DNA of 50,149 bases from Chloroflexota bacterium (GCA_016210585.1 JACQTX010000187.1:1-50149); one strand, 5' to 3'. Shown: positions 3,978 to 23,451, numbered from the stretch's first letter. Numbers and translations: made by a program. Notes: a model not told the origin generated them from the sequence alone.

Positions 3978-5575
3978 ATTTTGCCCAGACCCTTTAGCTT
4001 CCTTATCCTCCCTTTGACCTTTACCTCTTCCCCCTCACACTGATAAACTACTTTTCGTCTAGCCGGTTCACTGTCTTGTTCAAATATGTCTTGCAACACA
4101 CGTCCATCCATGTTTTCCGATACAGGCAGACCCATGAGATGGAGTATGGTAGGTGTCACATCAGTGACATCGGCGCCATCAATCTTTGTCCCCTGTTTAA
4201 TGTCCGGCCCCCAAGCCAAGAAAATGCCACTCGGAGCATGTTTTCCGCTCCAATACCCGTCTTCTGCCAGATGAGTGCTTATCACTTGGTCGCTAAAATT
4301 ACCAAGTAGCCAATTATCCTGCAACTCAAATACTATGTCCAGCGCATTTTTCACATAGGGACCATGATAGATCTCGTCGCGTCTGAAGACATGACTGAAG
4401 ACCTTCTCCCCAGTTTCTGGGTGCCTTAATTCATTTAACTTGTCTATTACGTATGTTAATAAGCTATCATATTCGTTACCTGACTGGACAATACCTTTCG
4501 GATCCCTTTTCCTTAAATTAACTTTCAAACCGTCAGAGGAGAATGGGTAGTACACCTTTGTTCGAGTCAAGTCGATTTGCCTGAGATCAAATGTCTCCGA
4601 AGGAACCATCTCTATCAGCCGCCTAGGTATCGCCTTTAGCAGCCCGTCAATATTTATCTTTCGGGCCAGTCTCTGCATCAGCGGGCTCAGACGTTGCCTT
4701 GTGAAACCCAGTTTCCGAAGTAACTCAACCAGCAATGAACGCTTATTTCGTAACAGCCCAAGGCGCATCAAAAACGTATTTATGTAGAGTCTCTCCTTTA
4801 CAGAGCAAAACCCATGATCGGAGGTCAGGAAAACGGTCGTTGTCTTGTCAACGTGATTCAGCATTTCCGCTATTATACCATCAATCCTTCTATAAGTTTC
4901 GAGGATTGTATCGCCTTGTGTTCGCCCGATATTTTCCCAGTAAAAATGTTGCATCCGGTCGGTCTCGGTAAAAACCACCATTAGAAAGTCCCAGTCGTGT
5001 TCTCTCATCAAGTCTAAACTTGCCTCTGCCCTTTTCCCCAAACCTTGCCAGACTTTTTGGGCATATTCCTCTTCCGAAACACCAATAAGATGGAGACCAG
5101 CATCACCTTCGGCCTCTACTATGTAGCCCTTGGCGATCAGTTCAGCACCTAGAGCAGTAGGATAGGCAAAAGTGCTTTTTTCCCCCGGTGTCCCCATTCC
5201 GCTTACCATGAAACCGTTCACTGGTACAGGAGGATACGTGAGTGGAATATTTACCATCCCGACATTCAATCCGCCAGCGCCCAAATAGTCCCAGATAGCC
5301 CTTGCCTTCAAAGTTTTGTGATTCGTAACAGCAACCCTTTTCGGGTTATCAAAAGAAAAGAAGCCGTAAATATTATGTTTGCCGGGATTTACTCCTGTTA
5401 CCATAGACATCCACCCTGAAGGTGTGCTGGCAGGAATAGTGCTCCTCAAGCTACCCCAGGTTCCTCCTCTTAGCAACCTATCAAAAGCAGGTAGATGCCC
5501 TGCCTCAACGTATTTCAAAATCACGTCCCACGTAGCACCATCCAGACCTATTACCAGGACTTTTCTTGGATTCAT
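3974..5575 (-). CDS. Alkaline-phosphatase superfamily enzyme (type I phosphodiesterase / nucleotide pyrophosphatase-like)
   Basis: The N-terminus KVLVIGLDGATWDVI and a later TSDHGF motif are typical of the AP/NPP superfamily metal site. The start was trimmed to MNPRKVLVIGLDG (ATG 5575). The longest ORF begins at 5626. Confidence 0.65.
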   Translation of the reverse strand: MNPRKVLVIGLDGATWDVILKYVEAGHLPAFDRLLRGGTWGSLRSTIPASTPSGWMSMVTGVNPGKHNIYGFFSFDNPKRVAVTNHKTLKARAIWDYLGAGGLNVGMVNIPLTYPPVPVNGFMVSGMGTPGEKSTFAYPTALGAELIAKGYIVEAEGDAGLHLIGVSEEEYAQKVWQGLGKRAEASLDLMREHDWDFLMVVFTETDRMQHFYWENIGRTQGDTILETYRRIDGIIAEMLNHVDKTTTVFLTSDHGFCSVKERLYINTFLMRLGLLRNKRSLLVELLRKLGFTRQRLSPLMQRLARKINIDGLLKAIPRRLIEMVPSETFDLRQIDLTRTKVYYPFSSDGLKVNLRKRDPKGIVQSGNEYDSLLTYVIDKLNELRHPETGEKVFSHVFRRDEIYHGPYVKNALDIVFELQDNWLLGNFSDQVISTHLAEDGYWSGKHAPSGIFLAWGPDIKQGTKIDGADVTDVTPTILHLMGLPVSENMDGRVLQDIFEQDSEPARRKVVYQCEGEEVKVKGRIRKLKGLGKI

Positions 5576-5703
5576 TCTTCTCCCCGCCTTATACCTTGCA
5601 TGATATGCCATTGCAAAAGCGACCACATACGCGGTACTTGCCTATAGCCAGAGGGACTAATCTCCCATAATAGCAGACCCCAAAAGAAAAACACTGAAAC
5701 AAA

Positions 5704-6960
5704 CTATTCGACTTTAGTGATCTTCTTACTTATCAAATTCCTAATGGCTCCTTTAAGGAGATACCATTCGAATTTCCACTCTAACAAGAATTTTGTTGCC
5801 CTTACATAATCGAACAGTGATTTCGGCTGAACACTAAGCGCATAATTGGGGACTTCTTTACCCAACAGTTTAAGCACACAAATGCGCGCGGGTGCCCTGT
5901 TCTTGAATGAGTAGCCACCCTTTTGCGCTCTTATGGCATCCGCTCTCGACATACGGGTAAGAGTCAAAACCCCTTTAGCTATAGCCTTCTTAATGAATTC
6001 CTCACCCCTAGCGCTCCTCGTTATGAGCATAGATGTGCCAATAGTATCAGTGGCCAGCTCGGGTAGCCAGGCATCCCCAAAGGAGATGTCTGCCAGCTCA
6101 GCGGTGAGGTCACGGCATGTTAAACACCGCCTCGGGACGAAATGTCCAAATACTTGCCCGAAAACGAAGGCGTAAGGCAGGGAGTATCGGACACCGTCAT
6201 CCGTGACAACAGAGAACTTGCCAGGCCATCCCGCACCGCGGTAGGCTACCTCTCTAACTCTTGCCTTTTCAATGCCAAGGCTCGACAAAACAAATTCGGT
6301 GCCTTTGAAACTAACACTGTGGGCACAGAATATGCCCATGTGCAAAGCTATTTTACCATTTATCTTCGAGTTCAGGCGCTCAGCTTTTCTAATACCATGC
6401 AAGTGGCAGGGAAGCCCGACCACGGCAAACCTTCCTTGTTGATGGATTAGCTGTCCAAAAGCCGACCCAAAATGTGTCGGACAATACTTAGACCTTGAGG
6501 CAGCAAGGATATCCTGCTTACTTCGCGCGATAAAAGGCTCCGGAATCAAGGGATTACTATCTTTCATCCTGGTAACCAGAGCACCGTCTATGAGACCTTC
6601 TTCCAGAGCATAAAGTAAAAGAGCCGTAACGGCGCCGCCGGAAGCACCTTGATATCTCACCGCCTGGTCGTTAGCATGGCCGATGTACAGTGCGTTCCAA
6701 TTCCCCAGTAGTTCATCTCTCGGAGACTCTCCCAAAAAGCGCTGGCTCAGGAGGCCGAAATCTACGGACTGTCCAGGGCATATCTTCAGGCAAAGCTCGC
6801 AGCTATTACACGTATTTTCATCAACTTCTGGCACATAAGTTGACTCAGGCCCGATTATCATAGTGATTGCCGCAATTGGACACACGGATTGGCAAATGCC
6901 GCAGCCGTGACACAGCTTTGATCTTACTATCGGTGAAATGTTCTTCAGAGTAGTCTTCAT
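5704..6960 (-). CDS. FrhB/FdhB-like (coenzyme F420 hydrogenase/dehydrogenase beta-subunit family) protein with N-terminal 2x[4Fe-4S] ferredoxin domain
   Basis: Two CxxCxxCxxxCP motifs (CHGCGICQSVCP, CNSCELCLKICP), followed by a flavin/FeS domain of FrhB-like length. The start was trimmed to MKTTLKN (ATG 6960), one nt after the upstream stop (TAGAATG). Confidence 0.65.
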   Translation of the reverse strand: MKTTLKNISPIVRSKLCHGCGICQSVCPIAAITMIIGPESTYVPEVDENTCNSCELCLKICPGQSVDFGLLSQRFLGESPRDELLGNWNALYIGHANDQAVRYQGASGGAVTALLLYALEEGLIDGALVTRMKDSNPLIPEPFIARSKQDILAASRSKYCPTHFGSAFGQLIHQQGRFAVVGLPCHLHGIRKAERLNSKINGKIALHMGIFCAHSVSFKGTEFVLSSLGIEKARVREVAYRGAGWPGKFSVVTDDGVRYSLPYAFVFGQVFGHFVPRRCLTCRDLTAELADISFGDAWLPELATDTIGTSMLITRSARGEEFIKKAIAKGVLTLTRMSRADAIRAQKGGYSFKNRAPARICVLKLLGKEVPNYALSVQPKSLFDYVRATKFLLEWKFEWYLLKGAIRNLISKKITKVE

Positions 6961-6961
6961 T

Positions 6962-8230
6962 CTATTTGGCATTATTCTCCAGGCAATTCCTGACAAGCTC
7001 GCCAACCGCAATTACCTTCTCCTGTACTGCTTTCAGATGTCTGGTTAACGCCTCCCTTATTTCTTGCCGGTTTCGCCAAATATGATTTATCCTGGAGATC
7101 TGGCCAGCAAACTCCATTTTGGCATAGTCGCATATCCAGTTCTCCTGGCCTAGCTCTCGCATTATGCCGTAGGTTTTGTGGCTATAAGCTATAGCTATAG
7201 TTGGGACACCCGATGACAATGCCGCTATATTGGCATGCATGCGCGCTCCCATGAACAAACTGCAACAGCTTATTATACCTTTCAGCTCCTCGGATGAATA
7301 CTCTTTATCTATTAGTATCACTCTGTCTCTTTCTTTAACCTTATCACGGACCAAAGCACCTACAATCCTATCATCGTCATTAGACCGTACTGATGTGGAA
7401 TGAGGGACAAGTATGATAGTTGCATCAAGCGTTTCAATCAGATAATCTATAGTCCTTACCATATTTTGAATATAGCTGTTATCTGAAGGATTGCTGTACT
7501 TAAGGTTAATATGTTGACTTATTGATAGCCCTATGAGAGGTTTATCATTTGGAATCTGTTCAGCCGACAGGATTTCCAGTATTCTTTGCTGTGGAGCCTT
7601 CTCCAGAAGAAAGGCTACATCACTGCTCAGAAAGATAGGGCTCCTAATCCCTATTTTCTTCAGGTAATCATATGTGATGCTTTCCCTGGCAACAACAAAA
7701 GCTGCTCTATTTAACACTGATCGAGCTGCGAATAGGGATATTTTCCGCCGAAATGGTCCGATGGACTGGGGAAACACAATGAGCCGCTTTCCCAGAATGA
7801 TGGCTAACAGCTTCTGAAAAAGACATGAAACAAACATCTGGAACCCGTAATCGTCGGTGAAGCCATCTCCGTAGCCAAGGTCAATTACCACTTCAGCTCG
7901 CATGTATTCTCTCAGTACCTTTTCATCAACCAATTTCGCCATATTGATACCGAAGAGTTTCTTCATTGTCGCCCAGGTCATGGCCCTGAGCAGGCGCCAG
8001 GGCAAGTTGGCAGCCCAAAGGTAAGGATTGCTATCCTTGACCGTCCTCATCTCCTTCGCGTAATAGGTCAGGGGACTTGCCACATCATAGTAATCCGGAA
8101 ACGAATGAAACAGCACAACATCGGTTTCCCCCAGGCATTTCTTCAATAGACCGATTGAAGCACTCGCCAGGGCAACAACTCCCCTGTTACGAGAGTAGAT
8201 TGAAGTGCCTATGAGAAGTATCCTATGCAT
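6962..8230 (-). CDS. Polysaccharide pyruvyl transferase family protein (CsaB/WcaK-like)
   Basis: About 420 aa. N-terminus MHRILLIGTSIYSRNRGVVAL and a C-terminal ARMHANIAALSSGVPTIAIAYSHK segment resemble the PS_pyruv_trans family. Adjacency to an FrhB-like gene is a recurrent pairing. The start was trimmed to ATG 8230. Confidence 0.65.
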   Translation of the reverse strand: MHRILLIGTSIYSRNRGVVALASASIGLLKKCLGETDVVLFHSFPDYYDVASPLTYYAKEMRTVKDSNPYLWAANLPWRLLRAMTWATMKKLFGINMAKLVDEKVLREYMRAEVVIDLGYGDGFTDDYGFQMFVSCLFQKLLAIILGKRLIVFPQSIGPFRRKISLFAARSVLNRAAFVVARESITYDYLKKIGIRSPIFLSSDVAFLLEKAPQQRILEILSAEQIPNDKPLIGLSISQHINLKYSNPSDNSYIQNMVRTIDYLIETLDATIILVPHSTSVRSNDDDRIVGALVRDKVKERDRVILIDKEYSSEELKGIISCCSLFMGARMHANIAALSSGVPTIAIAYSHKTYGIMRELGQENWICDYAKMEFAGQISRINHIWRNRQEIREALTRHLKAVQEKVIAVGELVRNCLENNAK

Positions 8231-8238
8231 ACGAACCT

Positions 8239-11200
8239 CTATTTCGGCCTTTTCCACCACACAAAGAAACTCACGAGCAGCAAACCGGCGGCAAGTATGA
8301 GTATGGTCTGCCAGGAGAGAAGCAGCTCGCGCCAGGGGAGTTTCCAGTCGCCACGCATCAGCAATTTCGGGTCATTAAGGCGCGGTGGCAACGGCATGTC
8401 TAGTTCTCCATCCGTAGTCAGGTCGCTGATAAATAGCGCCTGTTGTGCTGATGGCGCTATCTCAAGCACGGTCTTTCCTCTGATAGTCATGGGTTCACCG
8501 ATTCTGGACACCAGCCCTTTGGCCGGCTCAATCAGTATTGAAGAGAAGTTTGTTTCCCCGTCTACCTCTATCCTGGGACTGTAGGCAAAAGCGTTTGTGG
8601 CCGAGCTTATAGCCATGGCCAAGACTTGATTACTAATATCAAGCTGAAGGATTTTGCCGCCCTGCTCCACTACCATTCTTCCTGTAGTCCCTGACAGGTC
8701 AAGCTGCCATAAAAGCCCCTCCGGAAACTGCATCATCTGGTAGCCGAGAACAGAGGTCAGCATTTGCTGATTAACTCCTACCGCTTTGGGTGACATTGTC
8801 ACCCTCGGTGCGGTGACATTTGAAGTGGACGGACTATCAATGAAAATCTCCTTTACCCGGACGTTTTCGAGAGTCAGGTTTTCCATGGCAATCTCCAGCC
8901 GGTCAGCGGTGAACTCGGTGTAGAAGGGAATAAAGGATTTAGTCGTAGCTTTTATCTCGCCAGTGAGACTCGCGTCACCAATGGAGTAACCAAGATGCAG
9001 CTCGGCAGGAAACTCCTGCTCCTTATAAGCTGGAAAGATGAGGCGGAAAATCGAGCCCAAAGTAACAATAGTCGGTTTGTTTTTCGAATCCGGAGCTGGT
9101 GCTTCCAGTGCCGAGAAGAAGGGTCTTATATCCACATAGATGATTTCTCCTTGCCCAATCTCTTTGCGGTAGGCAAAAGGGGCGACACTCTTGCCTTGCC
9201 GCGCGTAGCTGGCAATCACCTCTACGGACGGGGCTTTTGATGCGGAAAGGGCTACGTTAATATTTGGTAAGGCAATGGACGCCTCACTACCGGATATCGA
9301 ATCAGCACGCACAGTTTCTGAAGAGTAAACAATTGACGCTAAATCAGCGGCAAAACCAGCGCCGTGGCTGTTTAACACAATCAGCTTGCCGCCTGATTTC
9401 ACCCAGTCCAGGTAAGCCTGATTGTCAACCTGATGGGCATTATGAAAATCGGCAGCTTCAAAGTTGGCGCCTATTTCGGCGAGGCGGATAACAGTTCTTC
9501 CTTGAGCGTCTGCCGGAACAAAGTAACCAAACGTCACTGACTTGATTCGGGTCAGGTCTATCTTTGATGTTCCGGACCTAACCTTATCCTTGACTGGTCT
9601 CAATGTGCCCTGGGATTGTGTCCAACCAGAGCTAGTCAGCTTGACGTCCAGAGATTCAGAGTTGCCTTCCACATCGGCAAAGCTAAACCTGAGAGTTCTG
9701 CCTGTGCCGTCGCCGAAAAACCAGAACTCATATGACTCGTAATCGCTCCAGTCCTGCGTCCGGGGGAAGACATGCTCAATATTGTGCCAGCCCTTTAGCC
9801 CATTGTCAATGGCCCACTTCAAACTCGCCTGTCTGCCTATCTTCTCGGAAGTATCAGTCTCAATGGTATCTGGTCTGACTTCTTCCAGGGACCGCACGAA
9901 TAACGAGTCGAGTAGCATTTCTTTGTCCACTCGGTGAATATAGAAACGGTCAATGCTGCCAACCCGGGCCGCGAAATCCACTCCGTTTGCTGACAGTAGC
10001 TCTTTGCCCCGCTCATCATAGACCGCGTAGTCACTTTTGCCAGCGCGGGCATCCCACTTCACCACAAAACGGTACCATGTGTTAGGGAGGTACCTTATAT
10101 TGCTGTCTGTCCAACCGTTCTTCCCTAAATAGCCGAAGGTCCCCTCGCCAGTTAGAGAGACACCACCCACTTCGGTCAACCCACTACGCAGCGTAATTCT
10201 CCCCAACTGGTAAAGATTTACTTCGCCAATGCGGATGACCGTTTGACCACTCGCCCCAATTGGCGGCACCTCGTAGCCAAACCTTACCGATTTGATTTTC
10301 GTCAGGTCCAGCTTTGTCTTACCGGAGCTGATCCTCTCCTTCAAGGGAGACAACATGCCGGAGAAGTCAGTCCAGCCGGTCTCACTCAGCTTGACATCTG
10401 TATAATCAGAGTTGCCAGCTTCATCTTCGAAGGTAAAGCGGAGAGTGCTACCACTGCCGTCGCCATATACCCAGAATCTAAACGATTGATAGGCACTCCA
10501 GTCCTGCGGCTGGGCATAGCTATACTGAATGCTGTGCCAGCCTTTCATACCAAGCTTAAGTGTCCATTTGAGGCTGGAGCTATTGCTAGTTCTCTCGGTA
10601 GAGTCAGCTACCAGGGAATCTGGCTCCATCTCGTCTAGGCTGCGTATGACCACCGAGTCCATAAGCATTTCTTTATCTACGCGGTGAATGTAAAAGCGGT
10701 CAATACGCTCAACCGGACTTCTGAAATCCACCTCTTCGGGGCCCCAGATTTCTCTGCCCTGCTCATTATAAATAGTGAAGTCTGCCCTGTCCGCCTCGCT
10801 GTCCCATTTCACAACAAAGCGGTACCACGTGTCAGGGGAATATTTCACTTTGCTGTCAATCCAGCCGTTCTTCCCCAGATAGCCAAAGGTCCCATCTCCG
10901 GTGAAGGAAACACCAGTTACCTCGGTTTGACCCCCGCTGCGGAGTGTAATTCTACTTGTCTGATTAATAGTGGGGATGCGCATCCAGAACTCCGCCTGCC
11001 CCTTCGCATATCCTTCAAAAGCGGTGTAAGCCTGGGCAAAACCCGTAGTACTGGCAACCAGGAGGCTCGGTCTTTGCCTCCCGGGCAAGGTAATTACCTC
11101 CAGATTACCACTCCCAATTACCCATTTCCGAACGTCATCCGCTTGCTCCGGGCCAATACGTAGTGCTGAGACAGGCCGGGTCAATAGCTGCCAACCATAC

Positions 11201-14199
11201 ACTTCAGGAGATGTTTTATCTGACGCATTCACTGGTAGCACTATTTGGTTTTGTGCGGGCAGGCGCAGCCAGAACTCCGCCTGCCCTTTTACGAATCCCT
11301 GAAGAGCGGCGTAAGCCTGGGCAAACTGCGTGGTACTGGTAGCCAGCAGGCTTGGGCCTTGCCTTCCGGGTAAAATGGTTGTTTCCAGCTTACCACTCCC
11401 GATTACCCATTTCCGAATATCATCTGCTTGCTCCGGGCCGATACGCTCTTCCGTGATGGGTCTGGTTAGCAGTTGCCAATTATCTGCTCCCGCCCTGCTC
11501 AAGGGGTCATACGGTAACACGATAACCGGCGCGTTAAACTGTGCCGGGTCACCGCCGGCAAAAACGCCATAGTTCGTCCGGGCAGAAGAGAGCATCAGCG
11601 CGGAGAAGACATTGGTACCCTCGGAAGATAGAGGCAACCTCTGTCCAGATAGCCGGGTTTCTCGACCGCTAGCTACCCAGGGAACGGCAAGGGCTACCTC
11701 GGGCTGTGCAACCGGGCGTGACATAGGTGGGACTTCGTATATGGTATGTTCAGCATTTGTAAAGGCTATCGGCAAGAGGGGGAACAGGTTCTTGTTGAAC
11801 CATGACCCCTCTCCCAGCTTCCTAATTTCTTCGATTTCCGTTTTCGTCAGTGGGATGTATTTTACACCGTAAGATGGTAGAGAATATACCACTTGCAGCA
11901 TGTCCTTGTTTTTGAAAAACAGGTCTCGCTTTACATTAAAGAGACGTATTGATTGCGTTTGGGCTCCCAGTGCTCTCTGCCCACTCAATTGTAGTTTCTG
12001 TGAGTTAGCTACCGAAAAAGTAGCCACTTTGTAGGTAGCCGAATTATTGCTCTTCAAGAAATCTACTGCCTCGATGTCTTGGGCAGAGCCTTGCCACCTG
12101 TTTTCTGTGCTTACCGCCTCGCGCTCTATTTGCAAGAGGCTATCCACTGAGCTAAAAACCAAAACCAGGACCAAAAAACCGGTTAGGGCATACTGTGCCA
12201 TACTGGTGTTGCGTATCAGTCCCCTAATCCTGCGGACAATGAACAGTAATGCCCAGGCCCCCAGTAATGCTATGAACACAAAGGACAAGAAGATAAACCG
12301 GAACTCCTCGATAGGAGTCGCACGTGCTGTTGCTCCCATCTTGACAATTGGTGTCCCGTAGAACTCGATGTTCACAACACCAAGAAGTCTACCCAGGATG
12401 ACAAGTATCACAAAACTCAACGCCAGAAAAGCAACCAGTCTTTCTATTCTGCCTGCCCGCAAAACAAGGCTGACCGAAACCAGGGCCAAGACGAGCGGGA
12501 CACCATACTTGACGGGCCAGAAGAACCAGGGGAAAACACCCGCTGACCAGTAGAGGTCATCGCTATCGAAAGGATAGGTGAAGCGATAGGCGGCAATAGC
12601 CAGGAAGAATAGGCCCCATGAAACGTAAAGCAAAGCTATTCGCGGGTAACTATAGATTACCCGCGATAAGTCCAGCCAGCTAAGCCGTTCCATGAGTCTC
12701 TTTGTCCCTCTTGTATTGAGGAGGTACGCCAGTAGTGTCATGAAAAGAGAAACCCCAATACTTAACCACAACAGAAGTCCCGAATAGGTACGAGCCGGGG
12801 AAGTTTCATCAACCAACAGAACCATGAGGCTACCGACCAACGCCGCACATGCTGTCCAGCTAATCCCTTTGGTATTTCCGACATATACTACCAGTGCCGC
12901 GGCGATAACCGTGAGAAAAATGAGCATTTCATACATGTGCACTAAGTAAGCTATGGCAAAGGTAATGGCCCCTAATATTACTTTGAGTCGTGCCGAAATA
13001 TTAGCTCTGAGGAGAAACAACATAGCTACGAAGTCGATGAGGCCAAAGACACGCGGCTTAAATACCCACTCCACAAAAAACTGGTGCTCGCGAAATAGAG
13101 TGGCTGGTCGCACCCCTTGCAGCACCTGCCACCATTGCCCCATGTCATCTATCGGCAGGGCTGCCAGCTTCTTCTGAATAACAAAGACGAAAGCGACACC
13201 GCTGAACAGGACGAAGATACTGGTGCTCAAGGTTGCCAGTTTTCTATTTTTGAATAACGCCATACCCAGCGCGTAGAAGGCAGGAATAATGAGTACCATT
13301 AGAAAATTGAGCAGCATGACAGCATTGACCATCGGAAAGCCGGCGATTCTGAGATAGGCGACCATATTGAGATGGAACCAGTAGGGATACGATTGTTGTC
13401 CCCACCACTCATACCAGCCTTCTCTGAAATAGTTCATCGCTATACCAAAGTGGCTGTACATGTCGCCTCTTAGGACATTCTGGTATTTGAAGTTGATTAG
13501 CACAATCCCAGCCAACACCAGCAGCGCAAGGGTCAGCAAAATAGCCTGGCTGTAGTTGAAGTTCGCCGGGGGCAACCCAGAAGCGTGTCCCTGACGCTCC
13601 GTCAGCCGCAGACTGCTGCGGCGCAACTCAACAGTGACAAAGGGAACGGCGAGAAGCAAACTGATACCCAGATAAGCGGGCAGAAAACCGTCGAAGTTTC
13701 GGATCGTCACTGCCAGGATAAAAAGCGCGGCCGTGCTCAAAAAGTAACTAACGATGAAGGAAAATACCAGCGTCATAGCTCCGGGGAGCTGCTTCTGCCG
13801 GTCAATGAAATAAACAATAATGTAGCCCGGCAGGAAATAGATAAGGAAGAGGGCTGAAATAACCCTGAGGTAGCTGGCAATGGATATTTGCCGCCAGTCC
13901 GGCTCAAAGAGGGCATCACTGGCAGGAACGAGGACAATGAAGGCTACCGCCAGGACATAGCCGGCCACGAATACCATGTTCCAGTTGAAAGAATAGCGAT
14001 ACTGGTCTGGCGAGTCTGCTTCTTCATTTGCCCACAGGTACCTATAGAGCAGATAGGCGAGAACGGCGACTATCGCCGCCAAGGCAAACCGCGTGGGCAG
14101 CCACAGTGTCCAGGATACTACTAGGCCGATGATGATAGCGACCAATACCGCCGGTAGCTCCCGACCGAGCAGGCTTCTTACCCGTGACCCGCGGCTCAT
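8239..14199 (-). CDS. Giant (about 1,986 aa) membrane protein: polytopic N-domain, duplicated beta-sandwich/CBM-like modules, C-terminal TM anchor; putative GT-C-type glycan-processing enzyme
   Basis: The ORF frame 8239-14601 was trimmed to ATG 14199 (MSRGSRV...), which forms an ATGA overlap with the upstream GT2 stop. Residues encoded by about 14199-12150 are almost entirely hydrophobic helices (about 20). The soluble part begins near VDSLLQIER (12121-12147). The terminal helix WQTILILAAGLLLVSFFVWW lies at about 8255-8320. Confidence 0.7.
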   Translation of the reverse strand: MSRGSRVRSLLGRELPAVLVAIIIGLVVSWTLWLPTRFALAAIVAVLAYLLYRYLWANEEADSPDQYRYSFNWNMVFVAGYVLAVAFIVLVPASDALFEPDWRQISIASYLRVISALFLIYFLPGYIIVYFIDRQKQLPGAMTLVFSFIVSYFLSTAALFILAVTIRNFDGFLPAYLGISLLLAVPFVTVELRRSSLRLTERQGHASGLPPANFNYSQAILLTLALLVLAGIVLINFKYQNVLRGDMYSHFGIAMNYFREGWYEWWGQQSYPYWFHLNMVAYLRIAGFPMVNAVMLLNFLMVLIIPAFYALGMALFKNRKLATLSTSIFVLFSGVAFVFVIQKKLAALPIDDMGQWWQVLQGVRPATLFREHQFFVEWVFKPRVFGLIDFVAMLFLLRANISARLKVILGAITFAIAYLVHMYEMLIFLTVIAAALVVYVGNTKGISWTACAALVGSLMVLLVDETSPARTYSGLLLWLSIGVSLFMTLLAYLLNTRGTKRLMERLSWLDLSRVIYSYPRIALLYVSWGLFFLAIAAYRFTYPFDSDDLYWSAGVFPWFFWPVKYGVPLVLALVSVSLVLRAGRIERLVAFLALSFVILVILGRLLGVVNIEFYGTPIVKMGATARATPIEEFRFIFLSFVFIALLGAWALLFIVRRIRGLIRNTSMAQYALTGFLVLVLVFSSVDSLLQIEREAVSTENRWQGSAQDIEAVDFLKSNNSATYKVATFSVANSQKLQLSGQRALGAQTQSIRLFNVKRDLFFKNKDMLQVVYSLPSYGVKYIPLTKTEIEEIRKLGEGSWFNKNLFPLLPIAFTNAEHTIYEVPPMSRPVAQPEVALAVPWVASGRETRLSGQRLPLSSEGTNVFSALMLSSARTNYGVFAGGDPAQFNAPVIVLPYDPLSRAGADNWQLLTRPITEERIGPEQADDIRKWVIGSGKLETTILPGRQGPSLLATSTTQFAQAYAALQGFVKGQAEFWLRLPAQNQIVLPVNASDKTSPEVYGWQLLTRPVSALRIGPEQADDVRKWVIGSGNLEVITLPGRQRPSLLVASTTGFAQAYTAFEGYAKGQAEFWMRIPTINQTSRITLRSGGQTEVTGVSFTGDGTFGYLGKNGWIDSKVKYSPDTWYRFVVKWDSEADRADFTIYNEQGREIWGPEEVDFRSPVERIDRFYIHRVDKEMLMDSVVIRSLDEMEPDSLVADSTERTSNSSSLKWTLKLGMKGWHSIQYSYAQPQDWSAYQSFRFWVYGDGSGSTLRFTFEDEAGNSDYTDVKLSETGWTDFSGMLSPLKERISSGKTKLDLTKIKSVRFGYEVPPIGASGQTVIRIGEVNLYQLGRITLRSGLTEVGGVSLTGEGTFGYLGKNGWTDSNIRYLPNTWYRFVVKWDARAGKSDYAVYDERGKELLSANGVDFAARVGSIDRFYIHRVDKEMLLDSLFVRSLEEVRPDTIETDTSEKIGRQASLKWAIDNGLKGWHNIEHVFPRTQDWSDYESYEFWFFGDGTGRTLRFSFADVEGNSESLDVKLTSSGWTQSQGTLRPVKDKVRSGTSKIDLTRIKSVTFGYFVPADAQGRTVIRLAEIGANFEAADFHNAHQVDNQAYLDWVKSGGKLIVLNSHGAGFAADLASIVYSSETVRADSISGSEASIALPNINVALSASKAPSVEVIASYARQGKSVAPFAYRKEIGQGEIIYVDIRPFFSALEAPAPDSKNKPTIVTLGSIFRLIFPAYKEQEFPAELHLGYSIGDASLTGEIKATTKSFIPFYTEFTADRLEIAMENLTLENVRVKEIFIDSPSTSNVTAPRVTMSPKAVGVNQQMLTSVLGYQMMQFPEGLLWQLDLSGTTGRMVVEQGGKILQLDISNQVLAMAISSATNAFAYSPRIEVDGETNFSSILIEPAKGLVSRIGEPMTIRGKTVLEIAPSAQQALFISDLTTDGELDMPLPPRLNDPKLLMRGDWKLPWRELLLSWQTILILAAGLLLVSFFVWWKRPK
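9448..10953 (-). repeat. Intragenic tandem duplication B1/B2 (2 x 251 aa; each is a lectin/LamG-like half plus a CBM11/CIA30-like half)
   Basis: RITLRSG starts at 10953 and 10200 (period 753 nt). Shared strings include GTFGYLGKNGW, TWYRFVVKWD, IDRFYIHRVDKEML, SLKW, QDWS.Y, FGDG.G.TLRF, KIKSV.FGY and TVIR. Identity is roughly 55-60% by eye. Confidence 0.8.
10954..11478 (-). repeat. Intragenic tandem duplication A1/A2 (WQLLTRP...GQAEFW module; period 285 nt)
   Basis: W codons of the two WQLLTRP motifs lie at 11476-11478 and 11191-11193. A hand alignment of 78 positions gives 56 identities (about 72%). Confidence 0.85.
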
Positions 14200-15245
14200 A
14201 CCGTTCCCTCTCGACCCCACTTGCGCGTGACTGACCATACTTCGCCCAATCTGACCGGGTATGTCGTCTTGCCCAAGGACCGCAACTGGCCTCTCTCCCT
14301 CAGTATGTGACGCAAGTGACGCAAGCCCCACCAGAAAGCCCTTATCTTGGCAAAAGAGTATTTCGGACTCTGCTTGAGCGTAACCCAGCCAACAAAAGTG
14401 GTCACCACCAGCTGAAAGCCCAGCGTGGACAAGATGAGGTGGACGGGCAGATGCTTGATATAGAAGTGGAAGACGCTTCTGAAGTGCTGGTAGGTCCGGA
14501 GCAAAGGTATATCCCCGGAAACCAGTCCCACCATATGGTAGACGATGGCGGAGGGCACCGTCACACAAGTATAGCCGGCCCTTCTGGCCGCCAGGCACCA
14601 ATCGAGGTCTTCGTTCAAGAAGAAATAGTCCTCGTCCAGCAGCCCGATTTTCTCGAAAGCCGCCCGCTTTGTCAGGCTGGCGCAGTTGGCTACAAAGTCC
14701 ACATCAGCTACTACGGCGCTAACGTTTTCCCGCCGTCCATCAAGGGGGACTCCCCAAATTAGACCGGTAAAAGCATCCAGGCGTGAGCCGGCCGACCAGA
14801 CCCGCTCCGTGCCGTGGTAGAATATCAGGCTACCTGCCACGCCAATCCGAGGTGAGCTGGTCAATGCCTTTACCATCTCTGACAGCCAGTTTTTGTCGGC
14901 AATGGCGTCATTATTGAACATGGCAATCAGGTCACCCTTGGCGGCTTTGATGCCCACATTGTTCCCCGCGGCAAAGCCGAGATTCCGCTCATTAACGATG
15001 AGTCTGGCTTTGGGGAACTCCTGCCGCACTATAGTCACCGAGTCATCCGTTGAGGCGTTGTCCACTACGATGACCTCATAGCGAGGATAGGTCTGCGCAA
15101 AGAGTGACTCCAGGCATGGCCTGATGCACTTCTTGCCATTCCAGTTCAGAACGATGATGCTGACTAACGGTGTGCTGGACATAGTGAAATCCATCTCAGG
15201 CAATCTGGGAAAGGTAAGACCCACCACCCTCTTCTCCCCGCTCAT
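14196..15245 (-). CDS. Family 2 glycosyltransferase (paralog 1)
   Basis: VSIIVLNWNGKKC...EVIVVDNASTDDS...NLGFAAGNN...FNNDA is a classic GT2 (GT-A, DxD-type) N-domain. The start is uncertain (ATG 15245, 15194 or 15182; the longest ORF begins at 15320). The stop overlaps the giant gene's start (ATGA). Confidence 0.8.
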   Translation of the reverse strand: MSGEKRVVGLTFPRLPEMDFTMSSTPLVSIIVLNWNGKKCIRPCLESLFAQTYPRYEVIVVDNASTDDSVTIVRQEFPKARLIVNERNLGFAAGNNVGIKAAKGDLIAMFNNDAIADKNWLSEMVKALTSSPRIGVAGSLIFYHGTERVWSAGSRLDAFTGLIWGVPLDGRRENVSAVVADVDFVANCASLTKRAAFEKIGLLDEDYFFLNEDLDWCLAARRAGYTCVTVPSAIVYHMVGLVSGDIPLLRTYQHFRSVFHFYIKHLPVHLILSTLGFQLVVTTFVGWVTLKQSPKYSFAKIRAFWWGLRHLRHILRERGQLRSLGKTTYPVRLGEVWSVTRKWGREGTV

Positions 15246-15249
15246 TATA

Positions 15250-16266
15250 CTAAATCGTGGCCAGCTTTGACTGCGCGCACCGCCTGGTGGACAGGCGCAG
15301 ACACTCAGCGAGGCGGACACGAGGCAACGATTTTTTCAGTCTGCCTCCCGGCTTTGCTCTGCCGTTACGCCGCGCCTGGCTGAGAGCGGCAAAGCAGGCT
15401 CGCCACGAATGGCCTATGCTGTTGAGTGGATAACCCAGAAAGAGGACCTGTGCCACCGGTATGGCAGTGAGCTTCAATATTAGGCTCAGCGGAAGATAGA
15501 ACCACGGCAACCATTTCAACGTAAGCTTGAACTCGCTCTCCAGGTCAAGCAAATGCCTCCGTGAAGGCTCCTTCCTGGTTGAAGCGGAGACAGCATGCCA
15601 GACAACGGCGTCCGCCACTATCTTCAGCTTATAACCGGCCTGCCGCGCCCGCAGGCAGAAATCAACGTCCTCACTGCTGATGAAGAAGCGCTCATCCAGA
15701 AAGCCTATCTGGTCAAATACCTCTTTTCTTATCAGCACCGCACAAAAGGGTATGTAGTCGAAATCGTTGCTCAGGAGGACTTCACGGTCGTATTGCCCCA
15801 GGTGCCAGGTCATTCCGCTGAGCACGTCAAAGCGTCCGGCAATACCCCATAACATATCTTTCGGCTCCCGGTAGTAAATCGGCCCGGAGGCAATACCTGT
15901 TCCGGGGGAGGAGAGTATGCCCTCGCCCAGCCTGGCTAGCCAGTGCGGGTCAGCGCTGGCATCATTGTTGAAGAGCACCACCAGTTCCCCTCTGGCAGCC
16001 TTGATGCCGATATTGTTGCCGGCGGCAAAGCCGAGGTTGCGACCGTTGATAATCAGGCGCGCTGGCGGAAACTCTTTGCGGACTATCTCGGGGGAACCAT
16101 CGGTTGAGGCGTTGTCAACAACGATAACCTCGTAGTTCGGATAGGTCTGCTCAAAAAGCGAGGCCAGACACGGTCTGAGGCAACCTGCCCCATTCCAGTT
16201 CAGGACAATAATAGATACCATGGGAAACGTGTGACCACTCATACCACCAAGTCCACCTACCAGCAC
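15250..16266 (-). CDS. Family 2 glycosyltransferase (paralog 2)
   Basis: VSIIVLNWNGAGC...EVIVVDNASTDGS...NLGFAAGNN...FNNDA is collinear with the downstream GT2, so this is a tandem duplication. Confidence 0.8.
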   Translation of the reverse strand: MLVGGLGGMSGHTFPMVSIIVLNWNGAGCLRPCLASLFEQTYPNYEVIVVDNASTDGSPEIVRKEFPPARLIINGRNLGFAAGNNIGIKAARGELVVLFNNDASADPHWLARLGEGILSSPGTGIASGPIYYREPKDMLWGIAGRFDVLSGMTWHLGQYDREVLLSNDFDYIPFCAVLIRKEVFDQIGFLDERFFISSEDVDFCLRARQAGYKLKIVADAVVWHAVSASTRKEPSRRHLLDLESEFKLTLKWLPWFYLPLSLILKLTAIPVAQVLFLGYPLNSIGHSWRACFAALSQARRNGRAKPGGRLKKSLPRVRLAECLRLSTRRCAQSKLATI

Positions 16267-16272
16267 TGCCCA

Positions 16273-17391
16273 TCAGCCAGTGGCTGCTTTCTGTATTTGC
16301 TCTATGCAAGCGCAAACGTAATCTTTCTGCTCCAGCGTCAACCCGGAACTGGAGGGCAGGTACAGACCCCTTTGGCCCAGTTCGTCAGCTACCGGATAGC
16401 TTTCTCCGGCAAACAGGCCCATCTCGGTAAAGCAGGGCTGGCGGTGCATGGAAAAGAAAAAGGTGCGCGTGCCCACGCCCTTCTCACTGAGCCTGGCCAT
16501 TAGCTCATCACGCGTGAGGCCAAACTCGTCCTGTACCAGGATACCATACATCCAGTATACATTCTTTGCCCAGCTTTTCTCCACTGGCAGGGTGATGCCG
16601 GGTATGTCCTTGAGACGGCTATTGTAATAGTGAGCGTTGCGCCGCCTCATCTCCACAAACTCATCAATTCTTTCTAGCTGGGCCAGGCCAATGGCCGCCT
16701 GAATATTTGTCATGCGGTAGTTGAAACCAATGTCCGTATGCATGAATCTCTTTTCTGGGAAATAGGCCAGGTCCTTTAGACGCCTGGCCCGGTCGGCGAT
16801 TTTGGCATCATTGGTGATAACCATGCCCCCTTCGCCGGTGGTAATTATCTTGTTAGCGTAGAAGCTGAAACAACCGATGTGTCCTATGCCACCCGCTTTT
16901 CTACCATTGTACTCTGCGCCGTGGGCTTCGGCAGCATCCTCAATTACGAACAGGTTATGCCTCCGGGCAATTTCCATTATGGGGTCCATATCGCAGGGGT
17001 GACCGTAGATGTGGACTGGCATGATAGCCTTAGTCCTTTTGGTTATCCGGGCCTCTATCTGGCTAATGTCCAGGTTCCAGGTATCCGGCTCGGCATCAAC
17101 CAGGACGGGCGTGGCACCGGTATAGACAATGGCAAAAATAGAGGCCGCCATGGTGAAGGCAGGCACAATAACCTCGTCACCCTTACCGATGCCAAGAGAA
17201 GCTACCGCCAGGTGAAGGGCCGTGGTGCCGCTGGTAGTCGCACAGCCGTACTTACAGCCGCAATAGCTGGCGAACTTCTGCTCGAACTCACCCAGGTACT
17301 TGCCCTGTGAAGAAATCCAGTTGGTCTTCAAGCAGTCCGTGACGTACTCAAGCTCTCTGGCTCCCGTGAGAGGCTCACAGACTGGAATCAC
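16273..17391 (-). CDS. DegT/DnrJ/EryC1/StrS-family PLP-dependent sugar aminotransferase (GDP-perosamine synthase-like)
   Basis: 372 aa with family-typical segments (LGIGKGDEVIVPAFT, FSFYANKIITTGEGGM). GTG start at 17391 in a GTGA overlap with the cupin stop. Lies two genes downstream of gmd. Confidence 0.8.
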   Translation of the reverse strand: MIPVCEPLTGARELEYVTDCLKTNWISSQGKYLGEFEQKFASYCGCKYGCATTSGTTALHLAVASLGIGKGDEVIVPAFTMAASIFAIVYTGATPVLVDAEPDTWNLDISQIEARITKRTKAIMPVHIYGHPCDMDPIMEIARRHNLFVIEDAAEAHGAEYNGRKAGGIGHIGCFSFYANKIITTGEGGMVITNDAKIADRARRLKDLAYFPEKRFMHTDIGFNYRMTNIQAAIGLAQLERIDEFVEMRRRNAHYYNSRLKDIPGITLPVEKSWAKNVYWMYGILVQDEFGLTRDELMARLSEKGVGTRTFFFSMHRQPCFTEMGLFAGESYPVADELGQRGLYLPSSSGLTLEQKDYVCACIEQIQKAATG

Positions 17392-17804
17392 GGGTTCCCT
17401 CCTTCGGCCAGGCGCACCTTGTCCTCAGCAGTCCCGAAGAACGGCCCCTGCTTCACCTCAATAATCCGGGAATCCTCCAGGATGTGGAAACCGTGCCCGC
17501 CGGAGATGAGAAGAATAGTGTCGCCGGCATTTAACGCGGCACTGGCAACTTTCCGGCCGTCATCCCCGTAGAACTCCGCTTCCACCTTGCCCTGGTCAAT
17601 ATGGAGCACCTCTTCCAGCCTGTTTATTGTTCTGGGGATGTCTTTGTGGACGTGAGGTCTTATCCTGGCACCGGCACGGTGCTTGAGCACACCCAGTTGC
17701 AAGGGGCTGTCCGCCGGCGTAATGAAATCAACGCCCTCAGTGCCGTGATTGCTGCGTAGAATCAACGCCAGGACCTTGTCCTGCCAGGTCACTGTGTCAA
17801 TCAT
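17388..17804 (-). CDS. Small cupin-fold metalloprotein (WbuC/FdtA-like; sugar-nucleotide isomerase/epimerase candidate)
   Basis: 138 aa. Cupin motif 1 G-x5-H-x-H is present (GARIRPHVH) and a second His-containing strand (GGHGFHI). Located between gmd and the aminotransferase. Confidence 0.5.
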   Translation of the reverse strand: MIDTVTWQDKVLALILRSNHGTEGVDFITPADSPLQLGVLKHRAGARIRPHVHKDIPRTINRLEEVLHIDQGKVEAEFYGDDGRKVASAALNAGDTILLISGGHGFHILEDSRIIEVKQGPFFGTAEDKVRLAEGGNP

Positions 17805-17806
17805 GC

Positions 17807-18862
17807 CTAGCGGTCCAGGACAAGCATTCGGGACAAGACCTTATTCTCGTTGGGGTAGTTGGGGGCATCCCAGGGGAACCTCTCACCCCGCGTCCATCTT
17901 TCCCAGCGTCTCAGGTCTTCTTTCACCATTATTTCAACAAGCTTGTCAAACTTTGTCTTGGGACTCCAACCTAGCTTCTCCCTCGCCTTCGCGTAGTCGC
18001 CATGCAGATAGTTTACGTCAAGTGGGCGAAGGAATCTCTTGTCTGTCTTTACGTACCTTTCCCAGTCCAACCCTGCAGTGGCAAAAGATCGTTCCGCGAA
18101 CTCTCTAACCGTGTGCGACTCATCAGTGGCTATTACGTAGTCATCAGGTTCATCCTGCTGGAGCATAAGCCACATTGATTCGGCATACTCGGGGGCGTAG
18201 CCCCAGTCCCGCTTGGCGTCGATATTGCCCAGGTATAGCTCTTTTTCGAGGCCTAAGGCAATCTTGGCAACGGCGTTGGATATTTTCCTGGTGACAAACT
18301 CCAGCCCCCGCAACGGTGACTCGTGATTAAAGAGGATGCCGTTACACGCAAATATGCCGTAGCCCTCACGGTAGAGCTTGGTTATCCAGTAGCCATAGAG
18401 CTTGGCTGCGGCATAGGGGCTGGATGGCCGGAAGGGTGTAGTCTCGCTCAGCGAATGGGAGTTCCCGTTACCATATAGCTCGCTGGTGGACGCCTGATAG
18501 AACTTCATGCCTGGGTTGACATTTCTTATGGCTTCCAGAGTGCGAGTAACGCCCAGGCCGGTAATATCGCCGCTGGCAATCGGCTGCTCGAAAGACGCCC
18601 CGACGAAGCTCTGCGCCGCCAGGTGATAGAGCTCGTCCGGCTGTGCTATTTTGATGGCCTCTGTAATCGAGCCGGCATCAATCAGGTCAGCGGGTATTAA
18701 ATTTACTCTTTCAAAAATATCCAGATATTGAAGGCGCCAGAAATTAGGCGTTGAAAGCCGCCGGTAGATGCCGAATACCTCATAGCCTTTGTCCAGTAAG
18801 AACCTGGCCAGGTATGAGCCATCCTGTCCGGTAACTCCGGTAATTAGTGCGGTCTTGCCCAT
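17807..18862 (-). CDS. gmd: GDP-mannose 4,6-dehydratase
   Basis: ALITGVTGQDGSYLARFLLDKGYEVFGIYRR... is the characteristic Gmd N-terminus. 351 aa, extended SDR. Confidence 0.9.
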   Translation of the reverse strand: MGKTALITGVTGQDGSYLARFLLDKGYEVFGIYRRLSTPNFWRLQYLDIFERVNLIPADLIDAGSITEAIKIAQPDELYHLAAQSFVGASFEQPIASGDITGLGVTRTLEAIRNVNPGMKFYQASTSELYGNGNSHSLSETTPFRPSSPYAAAKLYGYWITKLYREGYGIFACNGILFNHESPLRGLEFVTRKISNAVAKIALGLEKELYLGNIDAKRDWGYAPEYAESMWLMLQQDEPDDYVIATDESHTVREFAERSFATAGLDWERYVKTDKRFLRPLDVNYLHGDYAKAREKLGWSPKTKFDKLVEIMVKEDLRRWERWTRGERFPWDAPNYPNENKVLSRMLVLDR

Positions 18863-18868
18863 TCGGCC

Positions 18869-19849
18869 TTACCCCATACCTATAGGGAGTGCCAAGCGAT
18901 TCTGGTACCAGTCCAGAGTCAACTTGAGACCACTCCGTAAGTCGGTTTTTGGTTGGTAGCCCAGCATTGCGCGCGCCCGGCTAGTGTCTGGTAGTCTTCG
19001 TTTCGGGTCGCCCACACGTGGCGACAGCAGCCTGTAGCTAAATGGCCTTCCAGCAAGCTCATGAAGAACTCTTGCCAATTCAATCATGGTGATCTCATGC
19101 TCGCTGCCGAGGTTAAGGACATCGTTATCAACCTTCATTGCGGCGAGTACCGTAAAGTCAATTAAGTCTGAAATATAGCAAAAGCTTCTCGTCTGTGTGC
19201 CAGGGGCAATAATAGTGAATTCTGGCTCGAGGAGCATCTTTCTGATGAACTCAGGGATGACCTGTCCATATTTGCTGCTATCCATGCGCGGTCCGTAGGT
19301 ATTGAAAAGGCGTAAAATGAGGTACTTGAAGCCAAATGCTTCGGCATACCATTTCGTATAGTATTCGCTGATGACTTTACCTGCAGCGTAGGTATAGCGG
19401 GGGTTACTCAAATTGCCCAGTAAAAAGGGGTGCTGTTCATTAGTGGGCAGGTAAAGTGGGTCGCTATATACCTCGGAACTTGACGCAAAAATGAACTTCT
19501 TTATGTTATGTCGCGCGGAGAGCTTCAGCAGGTTCATGGTACCCTCGGAATTGACTCTCACCACATCAAGGGGCTTGTCATAGAAATGCTCAGTGCCGTT
19601 GATAGCCGCGTAGTGATAAACAACCTCAACACCATTCCTGAAGATCTGTTCAAGTCTGGGAATATCTTCCAGTATATCCAACTTCTCAAACGTGAAAGTA
19701 TCGCCAAGGTGCGCGACGTTTTCCAGCTTGCCCCTGAAGAGGTTGTCCACACCGACTACGGTATGCCCATCTGCCACCAGCCTTTCAGCCAGAAAAGAGC
19801 CAATGAATCCCGCCGCCCCGGTAATCAAAATCTCAGTCAATGCCGACAC
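18869..19849 (-). CDS. NAD-dependent epimerase/dehydratase (extended SDR; UDP-sugar 4-epimerase / UDP-glucuronate decarboxylase-like)
   Basis: Rossmann motif ILITGAAGFIGS and catalytic YAAGK (YxxxK). GTG start at 19849 (alternative TTG 19840). Confidence 0.75.
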   Translation of the reverse strand: MSALTEILITGAAGFIGSFLAERLVADGHTVVGVDNLFRGKLENVAHLGDTFTFEKLDILEDIPRLEQIFRNGVEVVYHYAAINGTEHFYDKPLDVVRVNSEGTMNLLKLSARHNIKKFIFASSSEVYSDPLYLPTNEQHPFLLGNLSNPRYTYAAGKVISEYYTKWYAEAFGFKYLILRLFNTYGPRMDSSKYGQVIPEFIRKMLLEPEFTIIAPGTQTRSFCYISDLIDFTVLAAMKVDNDVLNLGSEHEITMIELARVLHELAGRPFSYRLLSPRVGDPKRRLPDTSRARAMLGYQPKTDLRSGLKLTLDWYQNRLALPIGMG

Positions 19850-23361: not shown

Positions 23362-23451
23362 GGAGGGGTGTCCGAGTGGCCTATGGAGACGGTCTTGAAA
23401 ACCGTTGTCCCCGCAAGGGGACCGTGGGTTCGAATCCCACCCCCTCCGCCA
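23362..23451 (+). tRNA. tRNA-Ser (anticodon TGA), long variable arm, CCA encoded
   Basis: Acceptor GGAGGGG/CCCCTCC. Anticodon stem ACGGT/ACCGT with loop CTTGAAA (TGA at 23396-23398). Variable arm TGTCCCCGCAAGGGGACC. T arm GTGGG-TTCGAAT-CCCAC. Discriminator G, CCA ends at 23451. Confidence 0.9.

Follow-up and report, generated by a model that had tools for sequence, protein, structure and literature searches.

A giant, doubly anchored membrane protein of a Chloroflexota bacterium and its mainly archaeal relatives form a previously unnamed GT-C family with a predicted oligosaccharyltransferase-like core

The oligosaccharyltransferases (OSTs) STT3, AglB, and PglB (Pfam PF02516, CAZy GT66) have a GT-C fold with a core of 13 transmembrane (TM) helices in an N-in/C-out orientation, which is followed directly by an extracytoplasmic domain; the agl and pgl loci combine genes for cytoplasmic glycosyltransferases (GTs), sugar-modifying enzymes, and a flippase. 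DPY19, another GT-C enzyme, is a eukaryotic C-mannosyltransferase that lacks a large ectodomain and modifies the Trp of WxxW peptides with dolichyl-phosphate-mannose (Dol-P-Man) as donor. Mycobacterial AftD unites a polytopic GT-C part with carbohydrate-binding modules and one or more C-terminal TM helices. Here we compare with these systems a protein of 1,986 residues, referred to below as the giant, that is encoded at 8239..14199 on the minus strand of a 50,149-nucleotide stretch of DNA (the window) from a Chloroflexota bacterium (GCA_016210585.1 JACQTX010000187.1:1-50149). The comparison points to a previously unnamed, mainly archaeal GT-C family that has an OST-like core, a motif set of its own, an additional module of six TM helices, and an ectodomain that is anchored in the membrane at both ends. 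All coordinates within the giant gene and its operon given below refer to the minus strand.

An AlphaFold2 model of residues 1-900 of the giant, generated from a 53-sequence alignment (A3), has a predicted local distance difference test score (pLDDT) of 86.3 and a predicted template modelling score (pTM) of 0.90; a model from an earlier 5-sequence alignment, with a pLDDT of 45, was not used. In a Foldseek comparison of the model with the PDB, the best 14 matches are all GT-C enzymes (DPY19, STT3, AglB, and PglB), with a probability of 1.0 and template modelling scores (TM-scores) up to 0.51, and the next unrelated matches, pyrophosphatases and LeuT, have TM-scores of about 0.1. The best match is to C. 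elegans DPY19 (PDB 7zlh/7zlg/7zli; E 9.7e-6, TM-score 0.43, target-normalised), and the E values for OSTs range from 3e-5 to 2e-2, with 3e-5 to 3e-4 for yeast and human STT3, 1.3e-4 for A. fulgidus AglB, and 1e-3 for C. lari PglB. ArnT is also among the matches but is weaker than DPY19 and the OSTs. The top 50 matches contain no AftD, Emb, or PMT, and no Wzy, WaaL, RodA, or other polymerase or ligase. On this model, the N-terminal domain has the GT-C fold that an initial annotation, made from the sequence alone, had supposed. The same annotation drew an analogy with AftD, and this holds for the gross layout only: no AftD, Emb, or Aft structure is found at the level of fold, where the nearest structures are OSTs and DPY19, there is no AftD match in the sequence search of the PDB, and the carbohydrate-binding modules of the giant belong to a lineage-specific insertion rather than to the family. 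Like DPY19, the giant is a GT-C protein without the WWDYG motif, but the two have no sequence-level match and the giant has no match to the Dpy19 model of Pfam.

The gene model is well defined. An open reading frame (ORF) finder extends it upstream to a TTG (8239..14601), but the ATG at 14199, giving 1,986 residues and a stop codon, is preferred. Together with the TGA stop of the preceding GT2 gene (14196..15320) it forms the overlap ATGA, as described in the initial annotation, and a Shine-Dalgarno-like GAGGGA lies a few bases 5' of it; the choice is also supported by the closest homologue (P0004), because its alignment begins at its residue 9, which falls on residue 11 of the giant. In DNA of about 50% GC, a frame that stays open for 1,986 codons is far beyond chance. 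The product is identical to a database protein (P0001) from a Chloroflexi metagenome-assembled genome (MAG), entry HY670_09455, where it is called hypothetical. In a Pfam scan of the giant, CBM_11 is the only match, in two stretches; an NCBIfam scan gives no significant match, a sequence search of the PDB with the whole protein gives none, nor does a tblastn search of plasmids, and scans for promoters and terminators give signals at or near the shuffled background.

In the model, 19 TM helices are counted in residues 5-696. They comprise an N-terminal extension of six helices (residues 1-209; 13573..14199), with the conserved residues W102, P124-G125 of an LPGY motif, and S151, and an OST/DPY19-like GT-C core of 13 helices (residues 210-696; 12112..13572), assigned from the model, the Foldseek matches, and a weak collinear hhalign alignment. 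There follow about 1,260 extracytoplasmic residues and a single C-terminal TM helix. Hydropathy analysis agrees in giving contiguous hydrophobic segments over residues 15-689 and one further segment at residues 1959-1977; this C-terminal anchor, which is present in most full-length relatives, and its short basic cytoplasmic tail, ending WWKRPK, are encoded by 8242..8325. The large extracytoplasmic region and the terminal helix followed by KRPK had been recognized in the initial annotation, and its back-to-back hydrophobic helices are also borne out, but the polytopic domain is not a single module: it ends near residue 696 and consists of 6 + 13 helices. The N-in topology is assigned because the ectodomain must be outside and because the Lys and Arg residues that flank the hydrophobic cores are biased to the inside in this orientation (35 inside versus 23 outside); a crude count based on whole loops is uninformative. 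The giant thus shares with the OSTs the predicted fold, the 13-helix core, its orientation, and an extracytoplasmic domain placed directly after it. This domain, designated A, is an alpha/beta domain (residues 697-900; 11500..12111) that follows the last core helix, where the OSTs have their periplasmic core domain, and is modelled with a pLDDT of 80-97 except in one loop.

Across 113 family sequences, to which all conservation figures refer, the conserved polar residues are all found at the outer membrane face, in loops or at helix ends. D246 (13462..13464) is conserved in 99% of them and is invariant in alignments A1-A3; it lies within the motif G-D-x-W-x-H-x-G, in the first extracytoplasmic loop of the core (residues 239-246) just before the helix 247-256, and is the candidate catalytic base, corresponding to the conserved acidic first-loop residue that the initial annotation had named as a mark of a GT-C enzyme. 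The conserved pair H421 and E424 (97 and 81%; 12928..12939) is situated in the outer turn between core TM5 and TM6, and the sequence E632-F633-R634 (12298..12306) at the outer end of core TM12 contains R634 (91%), a candidate ligand of the lipid phosphate, and E632 (79%). The other conserved positions, in addition to those of the N-terminal extension, are N292 (89%), G334, P557, and G566 (100%). When the family profile is compared by hhalign with C. lari PglB (PDB 3rce_A, the sequence used throughout), residues 633-728 align with PglB 374-463 (E 0.003), and with a 14-sequence PglB profile the alignment extends over residues 633-781 and PglB 374-514 (E 7e-4, probability 26%); in a near-global alignment, residues 210-917 are collinear with PglB 9-676 at a weak E value of 0.014. 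D246 aligns with PglB D56, the catalytic Asp, in the near-global alignment, and R634 aligns with PglB R375 in three hhalign runs, so that a contact between R634 and phosphate may be envisaged. Domain A aligns with the start of the OST periplasmic domain, and the sole match of the family profile in the PDB is to 3vu0_A (E 0.01), which we take to be the C-terminal domain of AglB, with its WWDYG segment falling on the start of domain A. A distant relative (P0153) has a weak match to archaeo_STT3. Each of these signals is weak, yet they are collinear, mutually consistent, and in agreement with the structural search.

Nevertheless, we do not assign the giant to the STT3 family. The STT3 hidden Markov model (HMM; PF02516) has no match in the giant at E<=1 or in 34 relatives at E<=0.1. 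WWDYG is absent from the giant, in accord with the initial annotation, and the position at which PglB has V-V-A-W-W-D-Y-G is occupied by V-A-T-F-S-V-A-N; the family consensus has no W-W-D. The giant also differs from the OSTs in having neither the second acidic motif (PglB D154/D156) nor the Glu of external loop 5 (EL5; PglB E319), and in having invariants of its own (W102, LPGY, N292, and H421/E424), the six additional N-terminal TM helices, and, as a family feature, an ectodomain of 600-1,260 residues with a glutamine-amidotransferase-like domain and a C-terminal TM anchor. It therefore combines the OST fold and two key residues of the OSTs with the failure of three defining OST motifs and of the family HMM.

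The loss of several OST catalytic motifs, together with a very large ectodomain of non-enzymatic appearance, could be taken to mean that the giant is a degenerate GT-C protein, a scaffold or transport factor that organizes or anchors an envelope-assembly complex, and a role as membrane anchors has been proposed for MmpA-type proteins (PMC8698533). However, D246, H421, and R634 are near-invariant among sequences that are otherwise only about 20-25% identical, and they are on the outer face at positions that match those of the catalytic Asp and the phosphate-binding Arg of the OSTs; a non-catalytic role is accordingly considered very improbable.

The family is rare: an exhaustive HMMER scan with residues 1-720 of the giant against 1.84 billion representatives recovers 191 members at E<=1e-3, of which 97 reach E<=1e-10. 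The exhaustive scan was needed: a word-indexed homologue search is nearly blind to the family (3 and 5 matches). Most of the full-length members have 1,200-1,500 residues, made up of a polytopic domain of about 680 residues, a soluble region of 500-800 residues, and a C-terminal TM helix, and the giant, about 500 residues longer than most, is the longest. The alignments show four family-conserved parts, which are the N-domain, domain A (residues ~697-900), residues ~1585-1700, and the C-terminal ~260 residues with the TM anchor. A subgroup, searched for with a five-member set, is found in GTDB species genomes of Bathyarchaeota (two loci), Methanomethylicia, and Njordarchaeota, and all taxonomically placed members except the Chloroflexi giant are archaeal. 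No member is named and neither Pfam nor NCBIfam has a model for the family, which fits the initial suggestion that it is uncharacterised; no close homologue was found that carries an assigned, unrelated function, and no description of the family was found in the literature on DUF1616, DUF2298, AglB-independent OSTs, and new GT-C families. One link is to DUF2298/Chlor_Arch_YYY (PF10060, TIGR03662), which has the same odd distribution among Chloroflexi and Archaea: a search with the family profile brings up a DUF2298 protein (P0154; E 3e-7), with LPGY-like and D-x-x-x-H motifs aligned at low hhalign probability. DUF1616 (PF07760) is found below threshold at the equivalent of residues ~105-205 of the N-terminal extension in 8 of the 34 relatives (best score 21 bits versus a cut-off of 31.6) and has no match in the giant itself in the Pfam scan. 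Neither model matches the giant, and as both families are without an assigned function they add nothing on mechanism.

The giant is gene 10 of 15 genes that lie on the same strand between 385 and 22821, overlapping or separated by no more than 77 nucleotides. Like the agl and pgl loci, this operon encodes cytoplasmic GTs, sugar-modifying enzymes, and a flippase. Gene 1 (22045..22821) encodes an AglJ/DPM1-like GT2 of 258 residues, identified by Pfam as GT2, that is a candidate polyprenyl-phosphate sugar synthase or pathway initiator; the initial annotation had called it a polyprenol-phosphate sugar synthase, and its best NCBIfam matches are indeed of this type (PgfS, dolichyl-phosphate hexose transferase, ArnC, AglJ, and PpgS), but all are below the curated cut-offs. 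Genes 2-9 (14196..22048) encode a GT2 (305 residues), a UDP-sugar dehydrogenase, an epimerase, a 4,6-dehydratase, a WbuC-like cupin, a DegT aminotransferase, and two GT2s (338 and 374 residues), and their products would provide sugar nucleotides and elongate the glycan on the cytoplasmic side. Genes 11-14 (2460..8260) encode a CsaB/WcaK-like pyruvyl transferase, an FrhB-like Fe-S protein, an alkaline-phosphatase-superfamily phosphodiesterase, and a Wzx-type flippase (2460..3977). Gene 15 (385..2463) encodes a polytopic protein of 692 residues with an ectodomain and a C-terminal TM helix that resembles the MmpA family (NF053599, E 1.9e-52, 178.6 bits versus a cut-off of 210). No phosphoglycosyltransferase and no member of the Wzy, WaaL, LCP, or STT3 families was detected among the scanned ORFs of the window.

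The fold and the conserved residues indicate that the giant is very probably an active GT-C transferase that uses a lipid-linked donor. A fuller statement, to which we give an even chance of being correct, is that it belongs to the OST/DPY19 structural class of GT-C glycosyltransferases, is catalytically active, and transfers a flipped lipid-linked glycan en bloc. In the corresponding scheme, the cytoplasmic enzymes of the operon, that is, the AglJ/DPM1-like initiator GT2, the further GT2s, the dehydrogenase, epimerase, dehydratase, aminotransferase, and pyruvyl transferase, would build a modified glycan on polyprenyl phosphate, to judge from the gene content, and the co-encoded Wzx-type flippase would move the lipid-linked glycan to the outer leaflet. 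There the giant would transfer it to an extracytoplasmic acceptor, with R634 binding the lipid phosphate, D246 acting as catalytic base, and H421/E424 being nearby. Transfer en bloc, as the last step of an Agl-like archaeal pathway, would be the most likely mode of action; it is favored because the operon otherwise has no terminal transferase and because both the fold and the domain that follows the TM core are OST-like. The AglJ-like GT2 would initiate on polyprenyl monophosphate, which would explain the absence of a phosphoglycosyltransferase. An N-X-S/T sequon appears unlikely as the acceptor, because the giant lacks the sequon-reading motif WWDYG and two of the three metal-ligand positions of the OSTs.

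It should be recognized that several observations weigh against this scheme as a whole. The sequence similarity to the OSTs is statistically weak (hhalign probabilities of 3-26%). In the loops at residues 332-381 and 542-566, where equivalents of PglB D154/D156 and E319 were looked for, no acidic residue is conserved at >=70%; D351 and D352 of the giant align at the second acidic motif of PglB but are not conserved. With these equivalents and WWDYG missing, OST-type chemistry is not simply transferable to the giant. Of the loci examined, only two, the window and a Bathyarchaeota locus (L006), have a Wzx gene adjoining the family gene. Finally, the short GT2s, which in the window resemble polyprenyl-phosphate-sugar synthases and which are also present in two other loci (L003 and L004), would fit a monosaccharide donor equally well, and the best structural match, DPY19, is an enzyme with such a donor, Dol-P-Man.

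These last two points also bear on a different division of labor, in which the 258-residue GT2 makes a polyprenyl-phosphate-monosaccharide, a flippase moves it, and the giant attaches sugars one at a time to an existing envelope glycan outside the membrane, in the manner of AftD, ArnT, and GtrC-type enzymes. The best NCBIfam matches of gene 1, the short GT2s (216-259 residues) near the family genes in L003 and L004, and the DPY19 match are as expected for such an arrangement, and the CBM11 and LamG-like modules, of types that recur in the family (Laminin_G_3 in 6 and CBM_11 in 2 of the 34 relatives), would bind that glycan. Three-component systems of this kind are widespread (PMC11127046). However, no small flippase of the GtrA type can be recognized in the operon, and the flippase that is present is of the Wzx type, members of which carry oligosaccharide units; the glycan built by the GT2s would have no other candidate for its final transfer in the operon except the MmpA-like protein; and in the haloarchaeal Agl pathways the DPM1-like GT2, AglJ, initiates the oligosaccharide rather than synthesizing a monosaccharide donor. 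The addition of single sugars is therefore a possible role for the giant, although on the whole a rather unlikely one.

The ectodomain invites a further comparison, with polymerases and ligases. Residues 905-1580 are built from two repeats, each present twice. The copies of R1 (residues 905-1000 and 1001-1090; 10930..11487) are like the N-terminal half of a LamG/ConA-like domain and are 71% identical over residues 911-985 and 1006-1080 (75-77% in DNA), whereas each copy of R2 (residues 1091-1335 and 1341-1580; 9460..10929) consists of a LamG-like C-terminal half and a CBM11 module, with 55% identity between residues 1092-1327 and 1342-1576 (66% in DNA). The CBM11-like signatures noted in the initial annotation reflect real modules, as Pfam CBM_11 (PF03425) matches two stretches (E 8e-14, 52.5 bits versus a cut-off of 27). 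Laminin_G_3 gives a weak match below threshold (E 0.015) at residues ~1070-1143, across the junction between the second R1 copy and the N-terminal part of the first R2 copy, and a PDB search with the repeat region gives noise only. The order of the parts is N-half, N-half, C-half, CBM11, C-half, CBM11; in residues 905-1440 (9880-11487) a LamG/ConA-like fold appears to have been split and duplicated out of register. The alignments indicate that residues ~900-1580 are a lineage-specific insertion, which explains the additional size of the giant, and simpler related insertions, with matches to Laminin_G_3 or CBM_11, are seen in some relatives. The duplicated insertion suggests that a glycan is held beside the active site, either an envelope polysaccharide acceptor or the growing product.

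On a further reading, the giant might replace Wzy or WaaL in a Wzx-dependent pathway, polymerizing flipped units or ligating a polymer to the cell wall, with the long ectodomain as a chain-length ruler or a guide for the product. The presence of Wzx and the absence of any detected Wzy, WaaL, or LCP family member among the operon proteins, the tethering of an ectodomain with repeated modules of glycan-binding type at both of its ends, and the CsaB-like pyruvyl transferase, an enzyme linked to cell-wall polymers, are all in keeping with this suggestion. It is nevertheless distinctly unlikely, since the structural neighbors are OSTs and DPY19 with no polymerase or ligase among the top 50 Foldseek matches, the polymerase could instead be the MmpA-like protein or a Wzy that escaped detection, and the repeated modules are missing from most members of the family.

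The insertion also raises the question of whether the gene is an artefact, a chimeric or repeat-expanded ORF, as the source is a MAG and the protein has internal repeats and exceeds most of its relatives by about 500 residues. Against this, the repeats, at 66-77% identity in DNA, are too diverged for collapse or expansion by an assembler, the conserved parts on either side of the insertion are collinear with the family, and the closest relative (P0004) also enters an R1-like segment after domain A. Moreover, the frame is intact over 5,961 nucleotides and the gene is coupled to its neighbors. An assembly error is thus hardly credible, and the unusual size remarked upon in the initial annotation comes from the insertion.

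The remainder of the ectodomain is common to the family. A conserved domain at residues 1585-1700 (9100..9447), with the family consensus YLxWVxxGGxLIVL ... SPFAxxKxxGxGxIxY, has equivalents that match DUF4350 in 6 and Glyco_hydro_42M in 1 of the 34 relatives; there is no direct match to either in the giant itself. As these two families have a class-I glutamine-amidotransferase (GATase1)-like fold, the domain is probably of this type. The C-terminal ectodomain (residues 1701-1955; 8335..9099), which is collinear with the family consensus and contains the invariant residues G1881 and G1908, has no match in Pfam or the PDB.

The context of the family genes at other loci is consistent with a role in glycan assembly. 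The initial annotation had asked whether homologues keep the operon context, and all nine contexts examined (among them the window, L001-L004, L006, L007, and L009) are glycan clusters with genes for GT2 or GT4 enzymes, DegT, epimerases, or flippases. L001 and L002 have genes for GT4, GT2, and deacetylase; the large proteins encoded downstream of the homologues at these two loci were considered as shared acceptor substrates, but this was rejected as they are unrelated to each other. L003 is an archaeal-type locus with epimerase and GT4 genes in which, at 4955-6095, a short GT2 of 259 residues is immediately followed by a small membrane protein of the DUF2304 type, beside a DegT aminotransferase and a PglD-like acetyltransferase; this latter set resembles a bacillosamine-type pathway and is upstream of the family gene. 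L004 has epimerases, short GT2s, and a phosphodiesterase. In the Bathyarchaeota locus L006, three GT4 genes, one GT2 gene, and a methyltransferase gene are upstream of the family gene and the Wzx gene is immediately downstream; in L007 (Methanomethylicia), three GT4 genes, DegT, and an epimerase are accompanied by a GT2 gene immediately upstream, and in L009 a GT2 gene is likewise immediately upstream. The type I phosphodiesterase (PF01663), encoded at 3974-5626 in the window, shares a cluster with a family gene also in L004 (1-24), an unrelated metagenome locus, and may accompany the family repeatedly, acting for instance in recycling of the carrier lipid or addition of a phospho-substituent.

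Some features of the operon are of separate interest. The two GT2 genes just upstream of the giant (14196-16266) are tandem paralogues: short stretches 1,054 nucleotides apart are 80-87% identical in DNA, and both genes give the same lists of NCBIfam matches. Directly downstream of the giant (5704-8260), the CsaB/WcaK-like pyruvyl transferase is paired with the FrhB/FdhB-like 4Fe-4S protein, which suggests that the glycan is pyruvylated. Gene 15 is a candidate for a second GT-C-like protein in the operon. As MmpA (Rv0226c) is reported to resemble the membrane part of AftD (PMC8698533), the link to AftD fits this neighbor better than it fits the giant. NF053599 is the MmpA family of trehalose-lipid delivery, and the occurrence of an MmpA-like protein in a glycan operon of Chloroflexi, outside the mycolate-producing bacteria, is unexpected; homology between the giant and gene 15 is not claimed, the hhalign probability of the family profile with this protein being low.

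The window is bacterial, as it encodes DnaA, DNA polymerase III alpha, Obg, and Fmt. The 15-gene array is bounded exactly by tRNA-Asn and tRNA-Ser genes (37-111 and 23362-23451), and it is poorer in GC (0.46-0.56, against 0.53-0.63 elsewhere in the window), which suggests that it is a horizontally acquired island; no att-like, tRNA-derived direct repeat flanking it was found. The genes for DnaA (40443-41789, plus strand) and DNA polymerase III alpha (34572-38156, plus strand) are within about 20 kb of the island, which may therefore be near the chromosomal replication origin. A gene at 32964-34499 (minus strand), unrelated to the giant, encodes an N6/N4 DNA methylase fused to an Mrr-like/NACHT-associated inactive restriction-endonuclease domain.

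The last steps in glycosylating the envelope and proteins, those that face outward, fall to GT-C enzymes, and every family added so far has brought a new acceptor or linkage. The family of the giant has retained the scaffold of the OSTs with two of their key residues, and the sequon-reading and metal-binding motifs are replaced by invariants of its own; D246, H421, E424, and R634 are residues open to direct testing. The placed members come from little-studied lineages. To our knowledge, almost nothing is known of surface glycan assembly in Bathyarchaeota, Methanomethylicia, and Njordarchaeota, and the family gene is the only candidate for a terminal transferase in the otherwise complete-looking clusters of these lineages and, besides the MmpA-like gene, in that of the window. 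A more far-reaching proposal, and an unlikely one, is that the family constitutes a second, AglB-independent class of oligosaccharyltransferase that transfers a flipped polyprenyl-phosphate-linked oligosaccharide en bloc to acceptors other than sequons, for instance O-linked or otherwise linked sites of surface or S-layer proteins or a cell-wall polymer, and that operates in Bathyarchaeia, Methanomethylicia, Asgard archaea, and, via an old transfer, Chloroflexi. If true, this would be a new glycosylation chemistry on the OST scaffold. The logic of the Chloroflexi operon, with an AglJ-like initiator and no phosphoglycosyltransferase, is archaeal-looking and, if confirmed, would represent the sharing of a glycosylation pathway across domains.

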